In this document: positions 524 through 51,207 of the stretch, piece after piece
How positions within the stretch are numbered: position 1 is the first letter of the stretch
Layout: the number at the start of each line of letters is the position of its first letter
Assembly (NCBI GenBank): GCA_964016885.1
Contig: OZ024741.1
Location: 347,014,001 to 347,078,000 of the forward strand
Source: Eledone cirrhosa
Lineage: Eukaryota
Direction: 5' to 3'
DNA length: 64,000 bases
Translations under genes and position numbers: made by a program
The notes under the pieces: generated by a model
The model's input: only the letters and a program-made list of their open reading frames with translations
What the model was told of the DNA's origin: nothing
Databases searched by the model: none

Positions 524-605
524 GTTTCTACCCCAGAGGTTTCATTCGCCTTTTGGAAATATCCGATTATGGATAAATTCACGAGTTTCGAAATCATCAG
601 GAAAC
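524..605 (-). ncRNA. Type I hammerhead ribozyme (family A)
   Basis: Minus strand GTTTC-CTGATGA-long helix II-GAAA-CCTCTGGGG-TA-GAAAC; helix I GTTTC/GAAAC. Confidence 0.75.
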
Positions 606-1179
606 GAACTCAATTGAACAAAGATTTTTCTTAAATGATCCCCGCCAGAAACGAGTTCAAAATGGTTAAGAATTGTCAGATGGCCAGTTGTCAAGTCAGA
701 AAGCTTGTGATTGGTGCCTGACGGCGAGAAGGCTGGTTGCTAAGAAGCGCAGCCGAATACTGCCTACATTTTTACTCAACTATACGGGAGTATATAAAAT
801 ATATAGGTTTAAATATACATAAACTAGAAAGAGCCATAGATATATATATGTGTTTTTGGCAACCATTCACGGTGTGGTTCAATGACGAATTAATTAATTA
901 AATAATCAACAATGAGAGCATTATATAAGAAAGTAAGTCAATAGAATCTTTTCATAAAACCTACATAATTGATAAAACCTATATATTTTATATACTCCAG
1001 TATAGTTGAGTAAATATTTAGGCTGTATTCGGCTGCGCTTTCTAGCAACCAGCCTATTCGCCCTCAGGCACCAATCACAAGCTTTCTGGCTTGACCACTG
1101 GCCATGTGACAATTCTTAGCCATTTTGAACACATTTCTGGCGGAGATCATTTAAGAAAAATCTTTGTCCAATTGAGTTC

Positions 1180-1262
1180 GTTTCCTGATGATTTCGAAAC
1201 TCGTGAATTTATCCATGATCGGATATTTCCAAAAGGCGAATGAAACCTCTTGGGGTAGAAAC
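1180..1262 (+). ncRNA. Type I hammerhead ribozyme (family A)
   Basis: GTTTC CTGATGA T TTCG...CGAA T GAAA CCTC TT GGGG TA GAAAC. Confidence 0.75.
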
Positions 1263-2091
1263 ATAATTTTGGTATGTTTATGTACATTTTTTCTTCTAAC
1301 TTTGATTTTGTACCTAATTCTGTATGGTTGGCTATATGTCTAATCAATTTCTACGGGCTATTAGAGATAATAGGTAAATCTTCTGTGGCTGTTGATCGCA
1401 GATAAAATAGCTATCATTTATTTATCTATTGTTTCTTCATAGGTACATGTTAAACTTATAGCCTCGTTTAATTGTTTTTTTTATGTTGTTAATTATGCTG
1501 ATTTGGAGGAGAAATACTGTATATATTTTATCAAATGATTCTATGGACTTACTTTCTTATATATTGCTCTGATTGTTGATTATTTAATTAATTCGTCATT
1601 GAGCCACACTGAATGTTTGCCAAAAACACTCATATATATATATATATGGCTCTGTCTATGTAGACCTATATATTTTATATATATATATATATATATATAT
1701 ATATATATATATTAGAATTTGTGATACATTATATATATATATATATATATATATATATATATATATATATATATATATATATATATATGTTCTCGCACAC
1801 CTCCTCTTGTTATATATATATATATATATATATATATAAGTAGTAACACAACAGTTAGTTCACCATAGCGAGAGTAATATAATTGTTACTCTTGTGCGAT
1901 TCTTTAGATCGGACGGGTAATGGGTATACCGAACAGAAAAGGGGGAAACGACCGTATGAACGCGCATGCGCAGGGACTGTTACTTCTTGCAAGCGATAAA
2001 AAACCACGATCGAAAGGTGTAAGGGAGATAATTGCAAATGTCCGGAATAAACTGTTCGAGTTGATTAGACATTTTGGAATCTTGATGTTAT

Positions 2092-2421
2092 TCAATCCGG
2101 AGCTTTGTAGCTACGCAATAAGTGTTTCCAGACGTGTGGACAACGTGAGAATAGTTCATTTCTTGAATTTAGGCAATCGCTATTGCGTAATCCCCTTAGA
2201 ATAATTATCCTTTCTTCAATACATAGTCCACAATACGGATTACCCCTTGCGTATGGCTTGGACTTAGTAACAGCTTTCCATTGAAGGGAGTAGTCTATAC
2301 CTGTGTCTTTGAAGGACCATACGTGGCTCGAGCGCTTCGTGGATGATCGTTTGTCCGTGTACCTAAAGGTCGACAGATGATTCAGGAAGCGTTCTTTAAA
2401 CAGCCCCTCCTCCATAACCAC
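2092..2421 (-). pseudogene. PLE GIY-YIG endonuclease C-terminal remnant
   Basis: FKERFLNH..F, HVWSFKD, YSLQW, CGLCIEE, LNSRNELFSRCPH parallel the C-terminus of the 21618 ORF; a plus-strand PLE fragment (IFNRH.I..YSC.KN) lies at ~2550-2630. Confidence 0.8.
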
Positions 2422-47790: not shown

Positions 47791-49039
47791 TATATATATA
47801 TATATATATACATGCTTGGGTTAGTGTGAGTCGGGGAAGTTAATGTGTGTTCGAGAGTCTGTGTGTATTTGTATGTTTATAAACGTGTTTATGTGTGTGT
47901 GATTAATTTAGTGATATTCATCCTCCTAAATGTATTGTCTTATGACCGTTATAATCAATATCGGAAAACTGTTGTTTTAAACATTTCATACACTATATCA
48001 CTTCATATTGGAATTGTTTTTTGACGTTATGTGCCATCTTATTCATGGGGCATTCTGTTTAAAGTAGGATTATGCTGTTCCTACTAGTTCTTTGAGTTAT
48101 TTGGTAGCGGCTCTTTCCTTTAGAATCTTTTGGCGAAGTAATTTTTTTTAATGCCAAAATGACGAAGAATTTATTTGGACAATTTTGACAACACTGCCGT
48201 CTTTTAATTTGTAATTCATTTTTAATTTCCTTCTCTAATATTTCGAAAACTATTCCCACTTTTTAATGCATGTTCGTGTATTTAATGCATTTTCGTGTAT
48301 TTATTTTCCCGAATGTTGTTTTTAAAAAAATATGGGCATGTGTGCCATTGTTTTTATGCGCAATTTCAAATTATTTTATTATTCTATTTCCATTTTGTTG
48401 CTCCATTCAATTTCTGCCTTTCCCTTTCCTTTGGAGATGTGCTTCCTGTCTAAATATTACTGTTTGTCATTAGCTATGGGAAGCAAAAAATGGACATTAT
48501 AAAATTTCAGAACTGATAAACATTTTTTTTTTTAAATGCCATCAATGGCAAAAACGCACACCAATAAGACAACATGATGTCACTTTCCTGGAAAATACCC
48601 GATAAAAAGTGACAGGAATGATACATCAAATGTAGTCATTTAAACAGGTAAAACTACGACCCAGTCCCTCAAATCAGCTGCTATCATCTAGAGGATGAAT
48701 GCTGGAATGCCTTACGACGTTTATTGTAATATGAAAATACATGGGATTAAATACGTTGCTATGCAACACATAATAGTTTTCTCGATTAGTTGCGGTTAAA
48801 GTGCGGTTACATTACAAAAACAATTAGTTGATACAATTATGTGTGTGGATTTTAGACCTGAAAATATATCTACTCAAATGCAACGCATAATTGTTCAAAA
48901 TTAAAATGGAATATTTTGGAGAAAACAAAAAAACAACATAATGTATCATGTATATACATATACATGATAAATTATGTCGACCGACTTGATACCAGATCCT
49001 CTCAAATTGGACCAACGAAACAATGTTTCCATTAGTCTT

Positions 49040-49182
49040 TCCATTTGCCAATACTATCTACCAGTCGCAAATCCAAGCAGAAGGAGCAACGAGAAATAAT
49101 GTGTCTTGCTCAACGATATAACGCATCCCTGATCCTCGAAGCGAACTCACAACCTCACGATTGCGAACCCAATTGTCCAACC
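49040..49182 (-). mobile_element. Degenerate tRNA-derived SINE head
   Basis: TGTCTTGCTCAACG..ACGCA..GAACTCACAACC..CGATTGCGAACC resembles a reverse-complement SINE head. Confidence 0.45.
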
Positions 49183-49353
49183 TCTCTCTCTCTCTCTCTC
49201 TCTCTATATATATATATATATATATATATATATATAAACATATATATATATATATATATATATACATATATATATATGTATTGAAGTTTCCGTTGAAAAT
49301 TGAAAAAGACATACGAGTGAAGAGTGCTCTATGTAAGTACCAGAGCAAAATTT

Positions 49354-51207
49354 AATGTATAAAAAACAATACAATATAATTACCTCATTACCAGAGGTTT
49401 CCCGAATAAGACGAATACGAAAGAAACGTCTTCATTCGTTCGTCGAACGAGGCAATATAAAACATACTGAAATATTTGGTAAGTCTCCTCAAGAAATGCA
49501 AAAAAAATAAAAATAAAAAATAAATAAATAGACATATAAAATAAATAGACATATAAATAAATAAATAGATAGACATATAAAATAAATAGACATAAAAAAT
49601 ATATTAAAATGTTTAAGGAAATATAGTTAGGTGTGTGTATATGTAAGTATATACACTCACAGATGTACATTTGTATATATGTACAAATGCGTGTGTATAG
49701 TGAAAATGTGTGCGTAAATATATGTCTGAGGGCAAGTAAATCTGTGTATGTGTAACCACAAACACAGACATAATATGAGTGTCTGATTGACAGGTATTCG
49801 GAAAACAGGGTATTAGATACATTATAAGAATATGAAGGCACGCGTATAAGCACACACACACGCGCGTACACTTATATGCGGAAGAAAAAAAGGTAAGGGA
49901 GTGTAATAGTTAAAAGAAAGTGTCATTCTAGATATATTTATAAAAATTGAACAATAATTTAGAAAGAAAAAATTGCAAAGTAAAGAAAAGAAAACAAATA
50001 AGGTACACGCGTACATACACATATATCTATAAGAGACATATATCTATAAAAAAAAATATATATATATACACGCAATACGTGCAGACAAAAGCGTACGCAA
50101 GCGTACATACATACACAGGATGCACATATATATATACACATACACATCGCCCCATGTATATATAATCACACGTACGTACGCGACTGTATACACATACACA
50201 TATACACACATATAAATATATATATATACATACGCACATATACACATCCATACATGCATTACGTACACAGACACACACACACACATACATACACTCACGC
50301 ACATTGACCCGCTTACATTCACATACATAAAAATAAGAATGTAAAAGAACATAGATGTAAAAACACAGATATAAAAACACACATACATACACATATATAT
50401 ATATACACGCACGCGCGCGCACATACGGAGGCGTTCGTGTACATATACAGAAAGTATACACACATAAAGACGCTCAGACACATAGATACAGGGTGTAAAA
50501 ACAGCCTTAAGAATAAGTGAGTACAAATATAAAAATATGAAATTGGCTGCGAAATAAAAGAACATATCTGGAGTGGAAAACGCAAGTGACCAGTATAATC
50601 AGGTAGTGAAGAAAATAGGGAAGTGAAAAGTGGAAAGTGAAGATATTAGGTAAATGAACAGTTAAAATGCTGATATCGAGAATGACACTTTCTTTTAACT
50701 ATTACACACCCTTACCTCTTTTTCTTCTGCATATAAGTGTACGCGCGTTTGTGTGTGTTTATACGCGTGCCTTCATATTCTTATAATGTATCTAATACCC
50801 TGTTTTCTGTATACCTGTCAAGCAGACACTCATATTATGTCTGTGTTTGTGGTTACATATACACAGATATACTTGCCCTCATACATATATTTACGCACAC
50901 ATGTTCACTATACACACGCATTTTACATACATACATATCTACATCTGTGAGTGTATATACATACATATACACACACCTAACTATATTTCCTTAAAATTAT
51001 TTTAATATATTTTATATGTCTATTGCATTACATTTATTTATATATATATAATTTTTTTTTTGCATTTCTTGAGGAGACTTTCCAAATATTTCACTATGTT
51101 TTATATTGCCTCGTCCGACGAACGAATGAAGACGTTTCTTTCGTATTCGTCTTATTCGGGAAACCTCTGGTAATGAGGTAATTATATTGTATTGTGTTTT
51201 ATACATT
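49354..51207. mobile_element. Fold-back HHR element, family F, ~550-bp arms
   Basis: ~49354-49930 is inverted at ~50680-51207; HHR at 49380-49455 (-) and 51106-51181 (+). Confidence 0.85.
51106..51181 (+). ncRNA. HHR, U4C core variant (family F)
   Basis: TTGCCTCGT CCGACGA A CGAAT G AAGACG..CGTCTT ATTCG G GAAA CC TCT GG TA ATGAGGTAA; 9-bp helix I. Confidence 0.7.

Follow-up and report, generated by a model that had tools for sequence, protein, structure and literature searches.

Head-to-head fold-backs of Penelope-like retroelements in Eledone cirrhosa nearly always join one short and one long 3′ end, a pattern that probably reflects twin target-primed reverse transcription

Here, we analyze a 64,000-nucleotide stretch of Eledone cirrhosa DNA (the window) together with related elements elsewhere in the genome. 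As a preliminary description had proposed, nine inverted pairs in the window carry a hammerhead ribozyme (HHR) motif on the minus strand in the left arm and on the plus strand in the right arm (9/9; chance P = 0.002), their arms differ in length, and their outer ends adjoin (TA)n. The difference in length is due to extra element sequence on one arm. Using our own type I descriptor, which gave 0 matches in the reversed window, both arms scored in pairs 1, 4, 7, and 8 (600−/1185+, 16365−/17061+, 40393−/40676+, and 46734−/47436+) and the right arm alone scored in pairs 3 and 9 (13033+ and 51115+). The remaining cores did not satisfy the descriptor and were identified by eye (12620− in pair 3, 28342−/29338+ in pair 5, 39295−/40046+ in pair 6, 49446− in pair 9, and the U3-A8 cores 11519−/12249+ in pair 2); several of them are U3-A8 or decayed HHR variants. 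In an Rfam scan, HH9 matches at 13014+, 16313−, and 17043+ were weak and below the gathering score, and the output consisted mostly of microsatellite-driven miRNA matches. HHRs in direct orientation are also common in the window, namely in tandem units, in solo arms, and in the coding element at 17478-26750.

The ends are not variable: two 3′ ends, S (short) and L (long), are fixed within each family; they lie ~30-150 nt apart and bound a segment that we refer to as the tail. The left arm ends at S and the right arm at L in pair 1 (223 to ~1675; A-like, with S at 223), pair 4 (16108-17391; family D with a 463-bp tandem unit, a second left-arm HHR at 16828−, and a 3-nt overlap at the junction), and pair 5 (28231-29600; family E, with a 5′-longer left arm and a tail of ~150 nt on the right arm). 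The left arm ends at L and the right arm at S in pair 2 (11339-12352; family B, with a 45-bp ORF piece at the junction), pair 3 (12420-13209; family C with a 317-bp tandem unit), pair 6 (39113-40151; family B), pair 7 (40184-40856; family C), pair 8 (46274-47795; family A with a 655-bp tandem unit, of which the left arm spans 1.6 units and to which pair 1 has 69% identity), and pair 9 (49281-51212; family F). The apparent spacers of pairs 2, 5, 6, and 9 consist of sequence found in other copies of the same families. Two miniature family B fold-backs are also present, one at 38888-39082 (left S, right L), in which the arms begin just upstream of GAAA, and one at 46010-46192 (left L, right S). 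An element at 7260-7620 had been singled out as an exception to the polarity; it is a family X fold-back at 7256-7674 that is head-to-head by its HHR strand, with a left minus arm ending at S, a right plus arm ending at L, and a junction near 7478-7482 that cuts the left HHR at the core.

The window also contains a coding element of family H on the plus strand (17478-26750), a partial tandem ending at L and comprising a truncated upstream copy, a pseudo-LTR (pLTR) with an HHR at 21443, an ORF, a microsatellite-rich 3′ UTR, and a second pLTR with an HHR at 26618. The open 713-aa ORF (21618-23759, plus strand) has RWR at residue 38 and DKT at 116, corresponding to the RWK motif and the DKG-to-DKT change of the Hydra clade of Penelope-like retroelements (PLEs), as well as YRDD, the CxCx5C linker CNCLNKEAC at 566, TYIG of a GIY-YIG domain at 601, CxxC (CDLC) at 666, and CxH (CMH) at 694. 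Among 112 aligned homologues, RW[KR] is found in 106 and DK[TS] in all 112, and the C-terminal GIY-YIG is surrounded by the CxCx5C linker in 107, CxxC in 112, and CxH in 111; their conserved columns include no obvious CCHH set. The Pfam GIY-YIG match on the window ORF was weak (E = 0.005, below cut-off), four ORFs searched against Pfam at E ≤ 0.001 gave no match, and a PDB sequence search returned nothing meaningful. The two family H HHR motifs, read by eye, correspond to the canonical pLTR HHR of the Hydra clade, and a TA run of at least 6 is present at both edges in 117/167 elements. The HHR-to-HHR unit in the window is 5,175 bp, and at ~5.2 kb the element is longer than the <3 kb that is usual in the clade but given as a tendency rather than a rule where Craig et al. 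(2021, PMC8557442) describe it; the excess is explained by the microsatellite-rich 3′ UTR. The same description has tails of 30-40 nt, compared with ~30-150 nt here. Families B and F are likewise pLTRs of coding Hydra-type elements, and a solo arm of family I (8314-11252, plus strand), which terminates at S, is 5′-truncated and has a broken Hydra-type ORF (8314-9693), a 3′ UTR, and an HHR at 11156. By contrast with these coding elements, families A, C, D, and X are built of 317-655-bp non-coding units in tandem, each unit having a single type I HHR, spaced by ~655, ~320, and ~465 bp in A, C, and D among the matches listed and by ~520 bp in X; one tandem array has 16 units. Having at least two consecutive non-coding units with a complete type I HHR, all four families match non-LTR retrozymes in unit structure. 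Judged from their sequences, the elements are the pLTR ends of Hydra-clade PLEs and retrozyme-like derivatives of these, and the earlier view that they are PLE ends rather than TIRs of DNA transposons is borne out by arms that are the pLTRs of RT/GIY-YIG ORFs.

The polarity extends beyond the window. In a genome-wide tally, counted by eye from six lists of 100 matches with neighbors within 3 kb, 93 pairs were head-to-head and 4 tail-to-tail among the matches listed, and all 4 of the latter are separate insertions across TA tracts. Fold-backs might in principle arise from independent side-by-side insertions into TA tracts, where these elements accumulate and where tail-to-tail neighbors exist, or as palindromes formed later by DNA repair, of which there are a few amplified examples (L035 and L134). 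We consider this origin very improbable. There is no TA between the arms in 182 of the 190 head-to-head junctions within one family, whereas TA separates the arms in 21/22 tail-to-tail contacts; head-to-head orientation is not favored among neighbors from different families (16 vs 26); and copying during repair cannot supply a tail that is absent from the template arm. Altogether, 190 of 192 direct head-to-head junctions are within one family, and the two that join different families each have a family B arm ending at L.

Importantly, the two arms of a fold-back end differently. One S is joined to one L in 131 of the 136 fold-backs in which both ends could be called (P = 4e-33 vs 50%), with 38/174 pairs left out for an uncallable end. 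By family, the pairing holds in 21/21 for A, 23/23 for C, 18/18 for D, 48/52 for B, and 21/22 for H and, in additional counts by eye, in 18/19 for F and 9/9 for I. The five exceptions among called pairs are three SS and two LL pairs, and two of the SS pairs derive from one amplified palindrome. In a prospective test, new family B loci were selected solely for a tail on one arm, and the partner arm ended at S in 19/20. Solo arms and tandem arrays have the same ends as fold-backs. Locus L210 (SS, 8.3 kb) probably represents two elements and has TA tracts between them.

MITE-like DNA transposons with TIRs, or fold-backs that multiply as intact units, would also have fixed, TA-flanked ends and could account for the abundance of family B, whose exact motif is present in ~35,000 copies, many of them in ~200-bp fold-backs. 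Fixed ends with target duplications typical of MITEs had been named beforehand as an observation that would speak against twin priming; the ends are fixed but asymmetric and, hence, do not do so. Moreover, a transposon of this type would not be expected to have unlike ends in 131/136 pairs, centers that are not constant (among 55 family B pairs, 50 different 5′ combinations), solo arms and tandem arrays with the same ends, or arms that are the pLTRs of RT/GIY-YIG ORFs. Target duplications were visible in 9/117 pairs (vs 1.4 expected; 2 of the 9 are doubtful), and they vary in length from 10 to 33 nt and, thus, do not resemble those typical of MITEs; within pure TA tracts, such duplications are hidden, and a looser test gave a null result (35 vs 31.6). 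With unlike termini, an inconstant interior, and no fixed-length target duplication, the identity as a MITE or TIR transposon is refuted in our sample, and we regard an origin of this kind as hardly tenable. A search for empty insertion sites yielded none: reads and contigs break at TA tracts, and we found no PLE within a host repeat with usable flanks.

At the junctions (n = 84), the arms share 1-10 nt of overlap in 45, are blunt in 5, and are separated by unassigned bases in 34. Microhomology exceeded the null (mean 2.4 vs 0.75 in 35 clean joints of the 84). In families A, C, and D, the overlaps are mostly 1-5 nt and are not palindromes. Either arm can be 5′-longer, i.e., the S arm in 12 and the L arm in 9 fold-backs of family A, 14 and 9 of C, and 8 and 10 of D; in the non-tandem families H and F together, the S arm is longer in 14 and the L arm in 10, with 8 unclear. 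These observations bear on self-priming, in which a strand that snaps back serves as template for a hairpin, which an endonuclease then trims at S on one strand and at L on the other ahead of integration. This model, proposed for Adineta vaga PLEs (Arkhipova et al. 2013, PMC3846280), accounts at once for the polarity, the identity of the arms, and the microhomology at junctions, fits the palindromic junctions of some family B miniatures, and accords with the ascription of the tail to endonuclease cleavage in the account given in PMC8557442. However, the first-made strand of a hairpin is always 5′-longer; therefore, a cut of fixed polarity would assign the tail consistently to the longer arm or consistently to the shorter one. 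Instead, the tail is on the longer or shorter arm about equally often, also in non-tandem families, and, as noted, most junction overlaps in A, C, and D span 1-5 nt and are non-palindromic. Furthermore, the in vitro start sites reported in PMC11167929 are target-primed and lie at both boundaries of the tail. We therefore consider self-priming rather improbable.

The two arms of a fold-back share haplotype. Discordance at informative sites was 24/915, 69/735, 19/851, and 37/730 within elements, while it was 27%, 33%, 46%, and 24%, respectively, between elements. The partner arm was the strictly nearest sequence in 16/76 elements, and 70 private variants were on both arms vs 473 on one; post-insertion mutation makes this test weak. 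In multi-unit arms, 1,852 comparisons of register gave 7 in-register sites and a single arm-wise one; most of these stem from the placement of indels and carry little information. Arm concordance would also result if one subfamily were active at a time. In most fold-backs, the overlap between the arms extends over hundreds of bases. At ~1,500 family B junctions (999 + 533), the arms overlap slightly or not at all. An accumulation of L arms at S was marked in the sample (8 vs 2) but weaker in the raw genome-wide counts (999 vs 533), and none was seen in the few tail-only arms of H, F, and E. The 5′ extents of the two arms are correlated in H and F (rho 0.69, n = 27) and uncorrelated in A, C, and D.

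Based on these data, we suggest that a fold-back is a single insertion that probably arises by twin target priming, in which reverse transcription is launched on either side of a staggered cut and at two fixed sites that would lie on one RNA. Twin priming had been put forward on the basis of polarity; it stands as the best explanation, although polarity alone is insufficient because cDNA snap-back is also head-to-head. Rather, the models are discriminated by the S/L pairing with either arm 5′-longer. In this scenario, the element protein, probably a dimer, would bind the tail and cut both strands in a TA tract; the two 3′ ends would prime reverse transcription, with S as the start for one reverse transcriptase and L for the second. 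The cDNA primed at L may halt in or near the tail, so that the arms do not overlap (as is the case in L1 twin priming), or continue and displace the S-primed cDNA, giving a duplicated sequence. Host microhomology end-joining would then link the two cDNA ends; priming from a single end would instead yield a solo arm flanked by TA on either side. Given that the overlap of the arms usually runs to hundreds of bases, the use of one RNA requires long strand displacement. This requirement is avoided if an asymmetric dimer uses two same-source transcripts, or units of one tandem or circular RNA (a circular template has been suggested for retrozymes; PMC4209133), copying one from S and one from L. Two templates would also accommodate the independent arm lengths in the tandem families A, C, and D, the two mixed-family junctions, each with a B arm at L, and the rare LL and SS pairs. 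However, the strict S/L asymmetry and the haplotype agreement would then need an additional reason, mixed junctions are limited to 2/192 despite many coexisting families, and the correlated extents in H and F and the excess of L arms near S fit better with a shared template. Thus, two RNAs appear unlikely. Returning to twin priming from one RNA, we speculate that it is programmed and constitutes the normal mode of PLE retrotransposition: a protein dimer would clamp the tail, with a reverse transcriptase at each boundary, and make two copies of one RNA through strand displacement, such that the inverted pLTR, long without an explanation, and the one-sided tail are the footprint of a single reaction common to coding elements and retrozymes; this broader proposal is plausible, but we hesitate to favor it.

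In A. vaga (PMC3846280), head-to-head PLE structures are the "most frequently observed," the tail is optional on one inverted pLTR, and target duplications are 8-10 bp. The polarity and the one-sided tail are, therefore, already published, while the near-strict pairing rule is new. The self-priming explanation in that report, which invokes an antisense template, was based on few copies; the present data argue against it, as the tail can be carried by the longer arm or by the shorter one and the junctions are mostly non-palindromic, whereas published in vitro data fit twin priming. Specifically, in the reactions described by Frangieh et al. (2024, PMC11167929), the Penelope protein PAc (Poseidon, Anolis) cleaves and extends both strands of an AT-rich target from two internal start sites that bound the tail, and a dimer is predicted. 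The start-site sections of that report describe no difference between strands and do not relate the two start sites to the paired arms within an insertion; the S/L rule makes this connection and predicts one start site per strand within each PAc target molecule. L1 twin priming (bioRxiv 10.1101/2024.08.27.596794) involves two target ends that prime on one RNA, as we propose here, together with correlated extensions and an inversion accompanied by internal deletion or duplication, and an inverted segment joined by short microcomplementarity is found here as well; however, L1 uses poly(A) and a chance internal site and has short duplications (in 17%, median 22 bp), whereas the present families use two fixed sites and usually have a long duplication. 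As far as the Hydra-clade treatment in PMC8557442 goes, tail combinations are not counted, the tail is attributed to endonuclease resolution, and the origin of tandem and inverted PLE structures is named as an open problem. With the one-S-one-L rule, what had been a qualitative remark ("tail often at one end only") becomes a near-strict constraint on every model. It also follows that the tens of thousands of MITE-looking hairpins in the E. cirrhosa genome would be retro-insertions and should be annotated accordingly.

Finally, the retrozyme-like tandem units share their ends and geometry with coding elements, and that A, C, D, and X obey the S/L rule of coding PLEs would, at the level of sequence, be direct structural evidence of shared machinery. 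The ribozyme cleavage site was not clearly enriched as an arm end in A, C, and D. Animal non-LTR retrozymes (bioRxiv 10.64898/2026.07.22.740005) are likewise short type I HHR tandem units tied to PLEs; while retrozymes are described as head-to-tail monomers and multimers, families A, C, D, and X are also inverted head-to-head.

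The nine fold-back pairs of the window (524/1180, 11431/12244, 12581/13029, 16328/17054, 28289/29334, 39207/40041, 40351/40672, 46663/47431, and 49380/51106; pairs 1 to 9) are real elements of a known kind. Within the window, a type I hammerhead descriptor matched 13 motifs, versus none when the sequence was reversed; on the flanks of 100 loci it matched 60, versus none in the reversed loci. The descriptor scored pairs 1, 4, 7, and 8 on both arms and pairs 3 and 9 on the right arm; the other hammerhead cores were identified visually, among them examples of the U3-A8 variant, previously described in ribozymes of Penelope-like retroelements (PLEs) (PMC4209133). 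Every one of the nine pairs has a minus-strand motif on the left and a plus-strand motif on the right, as the preliminary description had observed. The exception it suspected at 7256-7674 (noted as 7260-7620; family X, unit ~520 bp) does not hold; the ribozyme strand makes this fold-back head-to-head, with the left ribozyme cut at the core by the junction.

Hammerheads at 21443 and 26618 belong to a partial tandem (17478-26750) that also holds an open 713-aa ORF (21618-23759). The RWR, DKT, YRDD, CxCx5C, TYIG, CxxC, and CxH motifs of this ORF are conserved across 112 aligned sequences (the window ORF and 111 of 120 homologues among the matches listed) and agree with the description of the Hydra clade in PMC8557442. 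Families B (pairs 2 and 6), F (pair 9), and I (11156) adjoin related ORFs and are therefore pseudo-LTRs (pLTRs) belonging to coding elements. Families A (pairs 1 and 8; unit 655 bp), C (pairs 3 and 7; 317 bp), D (pair 4; 463 bp), and X are non-coding tandems, like the animal retrozymes of 10.64898/2026.07.22.740005. The 20 family E loci examined had no ORF in the surrounding 1.5 kb on either side.

The genome (3.0 Gb) is rich in TA microsatellites and contains 288 (A), 34,879 (B), 394 (C), 3,131 (D), 1,528 (H), and 2,631 (F) exact-pattern matches. Counting by eye opposite-strand neighbors within 3 kb among the first 100 matches of each family, we found 93 head-to-head arrangements (A 10, B 20, C 20, D 18, H 14, and F 11, with one D pair probably a segmental duplicate) versus four tail-to-tail (B 3, F 1, and none in A, C, D, and H); in all four, the ends belong to separate elements and TA tracts lie between them. 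In a family-blind tally over 1.35 Mb, at loci partly chosen as pairs, same-family neighbors were head-to-head in 48 cases versus tail-to-tail in 2, and different-family neighbors in 16 versus 26. All seven B fold-backs in 200 kb sampled at round coordinates were head-to-head. Chance adjacency of elements is considered very improbable. The polarity stressed in the preliminary description is already known: head-to-head is the commonest arrangement according to PMC3846280, and opposite-strand pairs 100-700 bp apart are described in PMC4209133.

Each family has two fixed 3' ends, a short (S) and a long (L) one. The tail that separates them measures ~100 nt (A), 77 nt (B), 26-33 nt (C), ~70 nt (D, F, and H), or ~150 nt (E). 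Among 174 script-scored head-to-head pairs of families A, B, C, D, and H, both ends were callable in 136, and 131 of these combined one S with one L end (P=4e-33 versus 50%, the most favorable independent expectation); in the other 38, an end lies at neither site, some being interrupted by later insertions. The rule breakers are three SS and one LL pair in B, two of the SS from one amplified palindrome, and one LL pair in H. Scored by eye, family F gave 18 LS and one SS, probably two elements, and family I gave LS in 9/9; in families E and X, LS predominated and a single case in each resembled LL, the E loci having been selected for the tail. All nine window pairs, the fold-back at 7256-7674, and two B miniatures are LS. 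Prospectively, in new B loci picked solely for a tail on one arm, the partner ended at S in 19 of 20. Solo arms end at either site (20 S and 5 L in A; 6 S and 5 L in C), so paired ends are not independent draws. At L135:768-9241, a 7-kb retrozyme-like arm of 16 units stands head-to-head with a 1.2-kb arm, again one L and one S. Amplified palindromes at L035:2976-3504 and L134:2644-5383 consist of consecutive head-to-head units, apparently secondary duplications. Inverted pLTRs, head-to-head bias, an often one-ended tail, Hydra elements in (TA)n, and two start sites are known already; neither counts of S/L combinations nor twin priming for PLEs was found in the largely open-access literature searched. 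Tail combinations may be addressed in Fig. S2 of PMC11167929. The one-short-one-long rule is a new, strong, and testable constraint on PLE insertion.

The two arms of an element come from one subfamily. Where sequence varies among elements, mismatches between the arms affected 24/915 (A), 69/735 (C), 19/851 (D), and 37/730 (B) sites, against 27%, 33%, 46%, and 24% between elements, and the same family lay on both sides of 190 of 192 direct head-to-head junctions. However, only 16 of 76 elements have the partner arm as the strictly nearest sequence, and most private variants occur on one arm; therefore, the agreement shows subfamily identity but not a single molecule. We favor twin priming on one RNA as the probable reading; the same priming on two RNAs is a distinctly less likely one. 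The two-family junctions at L033:3631-4360 and L073:795-1484, without TA between and with the B arm at L in both, are possible two-RNA events or later deletions.

The lengths of the arms bear on a third reading, a hairpin with endonuclease resolution. The S arm extends further 5' in 12 A, 14 C, and 8 D pairs and the L arm in 9, 9, and 10; in non-tandem H and F, the counts are 14 S, 10 L, and 8 unclear. In a snap-back hairpin the first strand should always be longer, so that trimming of fixed polarity would not yield both kinds of pair, and we consider this reading unlikely. In H and F, the 5' extents of the arms correlate (rho 0.69, n=27, after leaving out five rows whose junctions were uncertain) and are near-equal in 8 pairs versus 2.1 expected; a correlation is absent in A, C, and D. 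Some L arms consist of the tail alone and do not overlap the S arm. A sharper pile-up at S suggested by the sample (8 versus 2) is tempered by the genome-wide B junctions, at which the second arm starts near S in 999 and inside the tail in 533 (anchors not normalized).

The simplest account is target-primed reverse transcription occurring twice, at two programmed sites, with one start site presumably taken by each target end. In PMC11167929, a Penelope protein cleaves and extends both strands of AT-rich DNA in vitro, starts at two sites bounding the tail, and is predicted to be a dimer. In the one-RNA version, overlap would require the L-primed copy to displace the S-primed copy; the near-star-like copies of the 16-unit array are compatible with a displacing reverse transcriptase on a circular template, and later amplification could also explain them. 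Twin priming of L1 serves as the model, but L1 uses a random second site and produces short duplications (17%, median 22 bp; 10.1101/2024.08.27.596794).

Junctions are varied (50 distinct combinations among 55 B pairs). Compared with the family majority, 35 of 84 were clean, and these had a mean overlap of 2.4 nt versus 0.75 simulated. Compared with each element's own sequence, a count given without a recomputed null, there were 45 overlaps of 1-10 nt, 5 blunt joins, and 34 junctions with unassigned bases, some locally templated. This pattern resembles microhomology end-joining. A loose test for target duplications was null; a stricter one gave 9/117 pairs versus 1.4 expected, with 40 testable, most duplications being hidden by TA runs. 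Seven cases of 10-33 nt are credible, e.g., L127 in non-repetitive DNA. Empty alleles were sought, and none came to light. That the fold-backs are MITEs seems barely tenable.

The coding element shows a stutter at its 5' junction (17410-17490), where ATACCC(ACTCC) occurs three times with TA in between, as though a cDNA end had over and over annealed to the TA target and slipped. The junction of pair 2 includes 45 bp from the ORF of that same element (12112-12156) and pair 6 has similar extra pieces, which are template jumps within the element RNA. In B miniatures (38888-39082, 46010-46192, and genome-wide), the usual stopping point of both arms is reference 161-181, which falls in the 3' strand of stem II of the ribozyme, so that the CUGANGA box is missing.

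A minimal-hammerhead family is represented at 7719-8333 (−) (core 7839−), with another copy at 62590−; it stands head-to-head against a broken Hydra-type element (8334-11252, +), with a 23-bp tandem duplication at 8287-8333. A further hammerhead family (51219-51758, core 51630+) immediately follows pair 9 and forms ~525-555 bp tandem units elsewhere. A third Hydra-type ORF, a C-terminal fragment, lies at 2092-2541 (−), and the broken ORFs at 34755-38206 (+), 14642-15492 (−), and 60240-62353 (−) are presumably LINE endonuclease/reverse transcriptase and Helitron-like pieces. No hammerhead was found in two near-perfect hairpins of 123 bp (13257-13379) and 44 bp (30459-30502). Finally, a very high-copy short SINE-like repeat (38518-38751, 3191-3375, and 56818-57210; L069, L112, and L187) has inserted into PLE arms with ordinary duplications of 7-18 bp.
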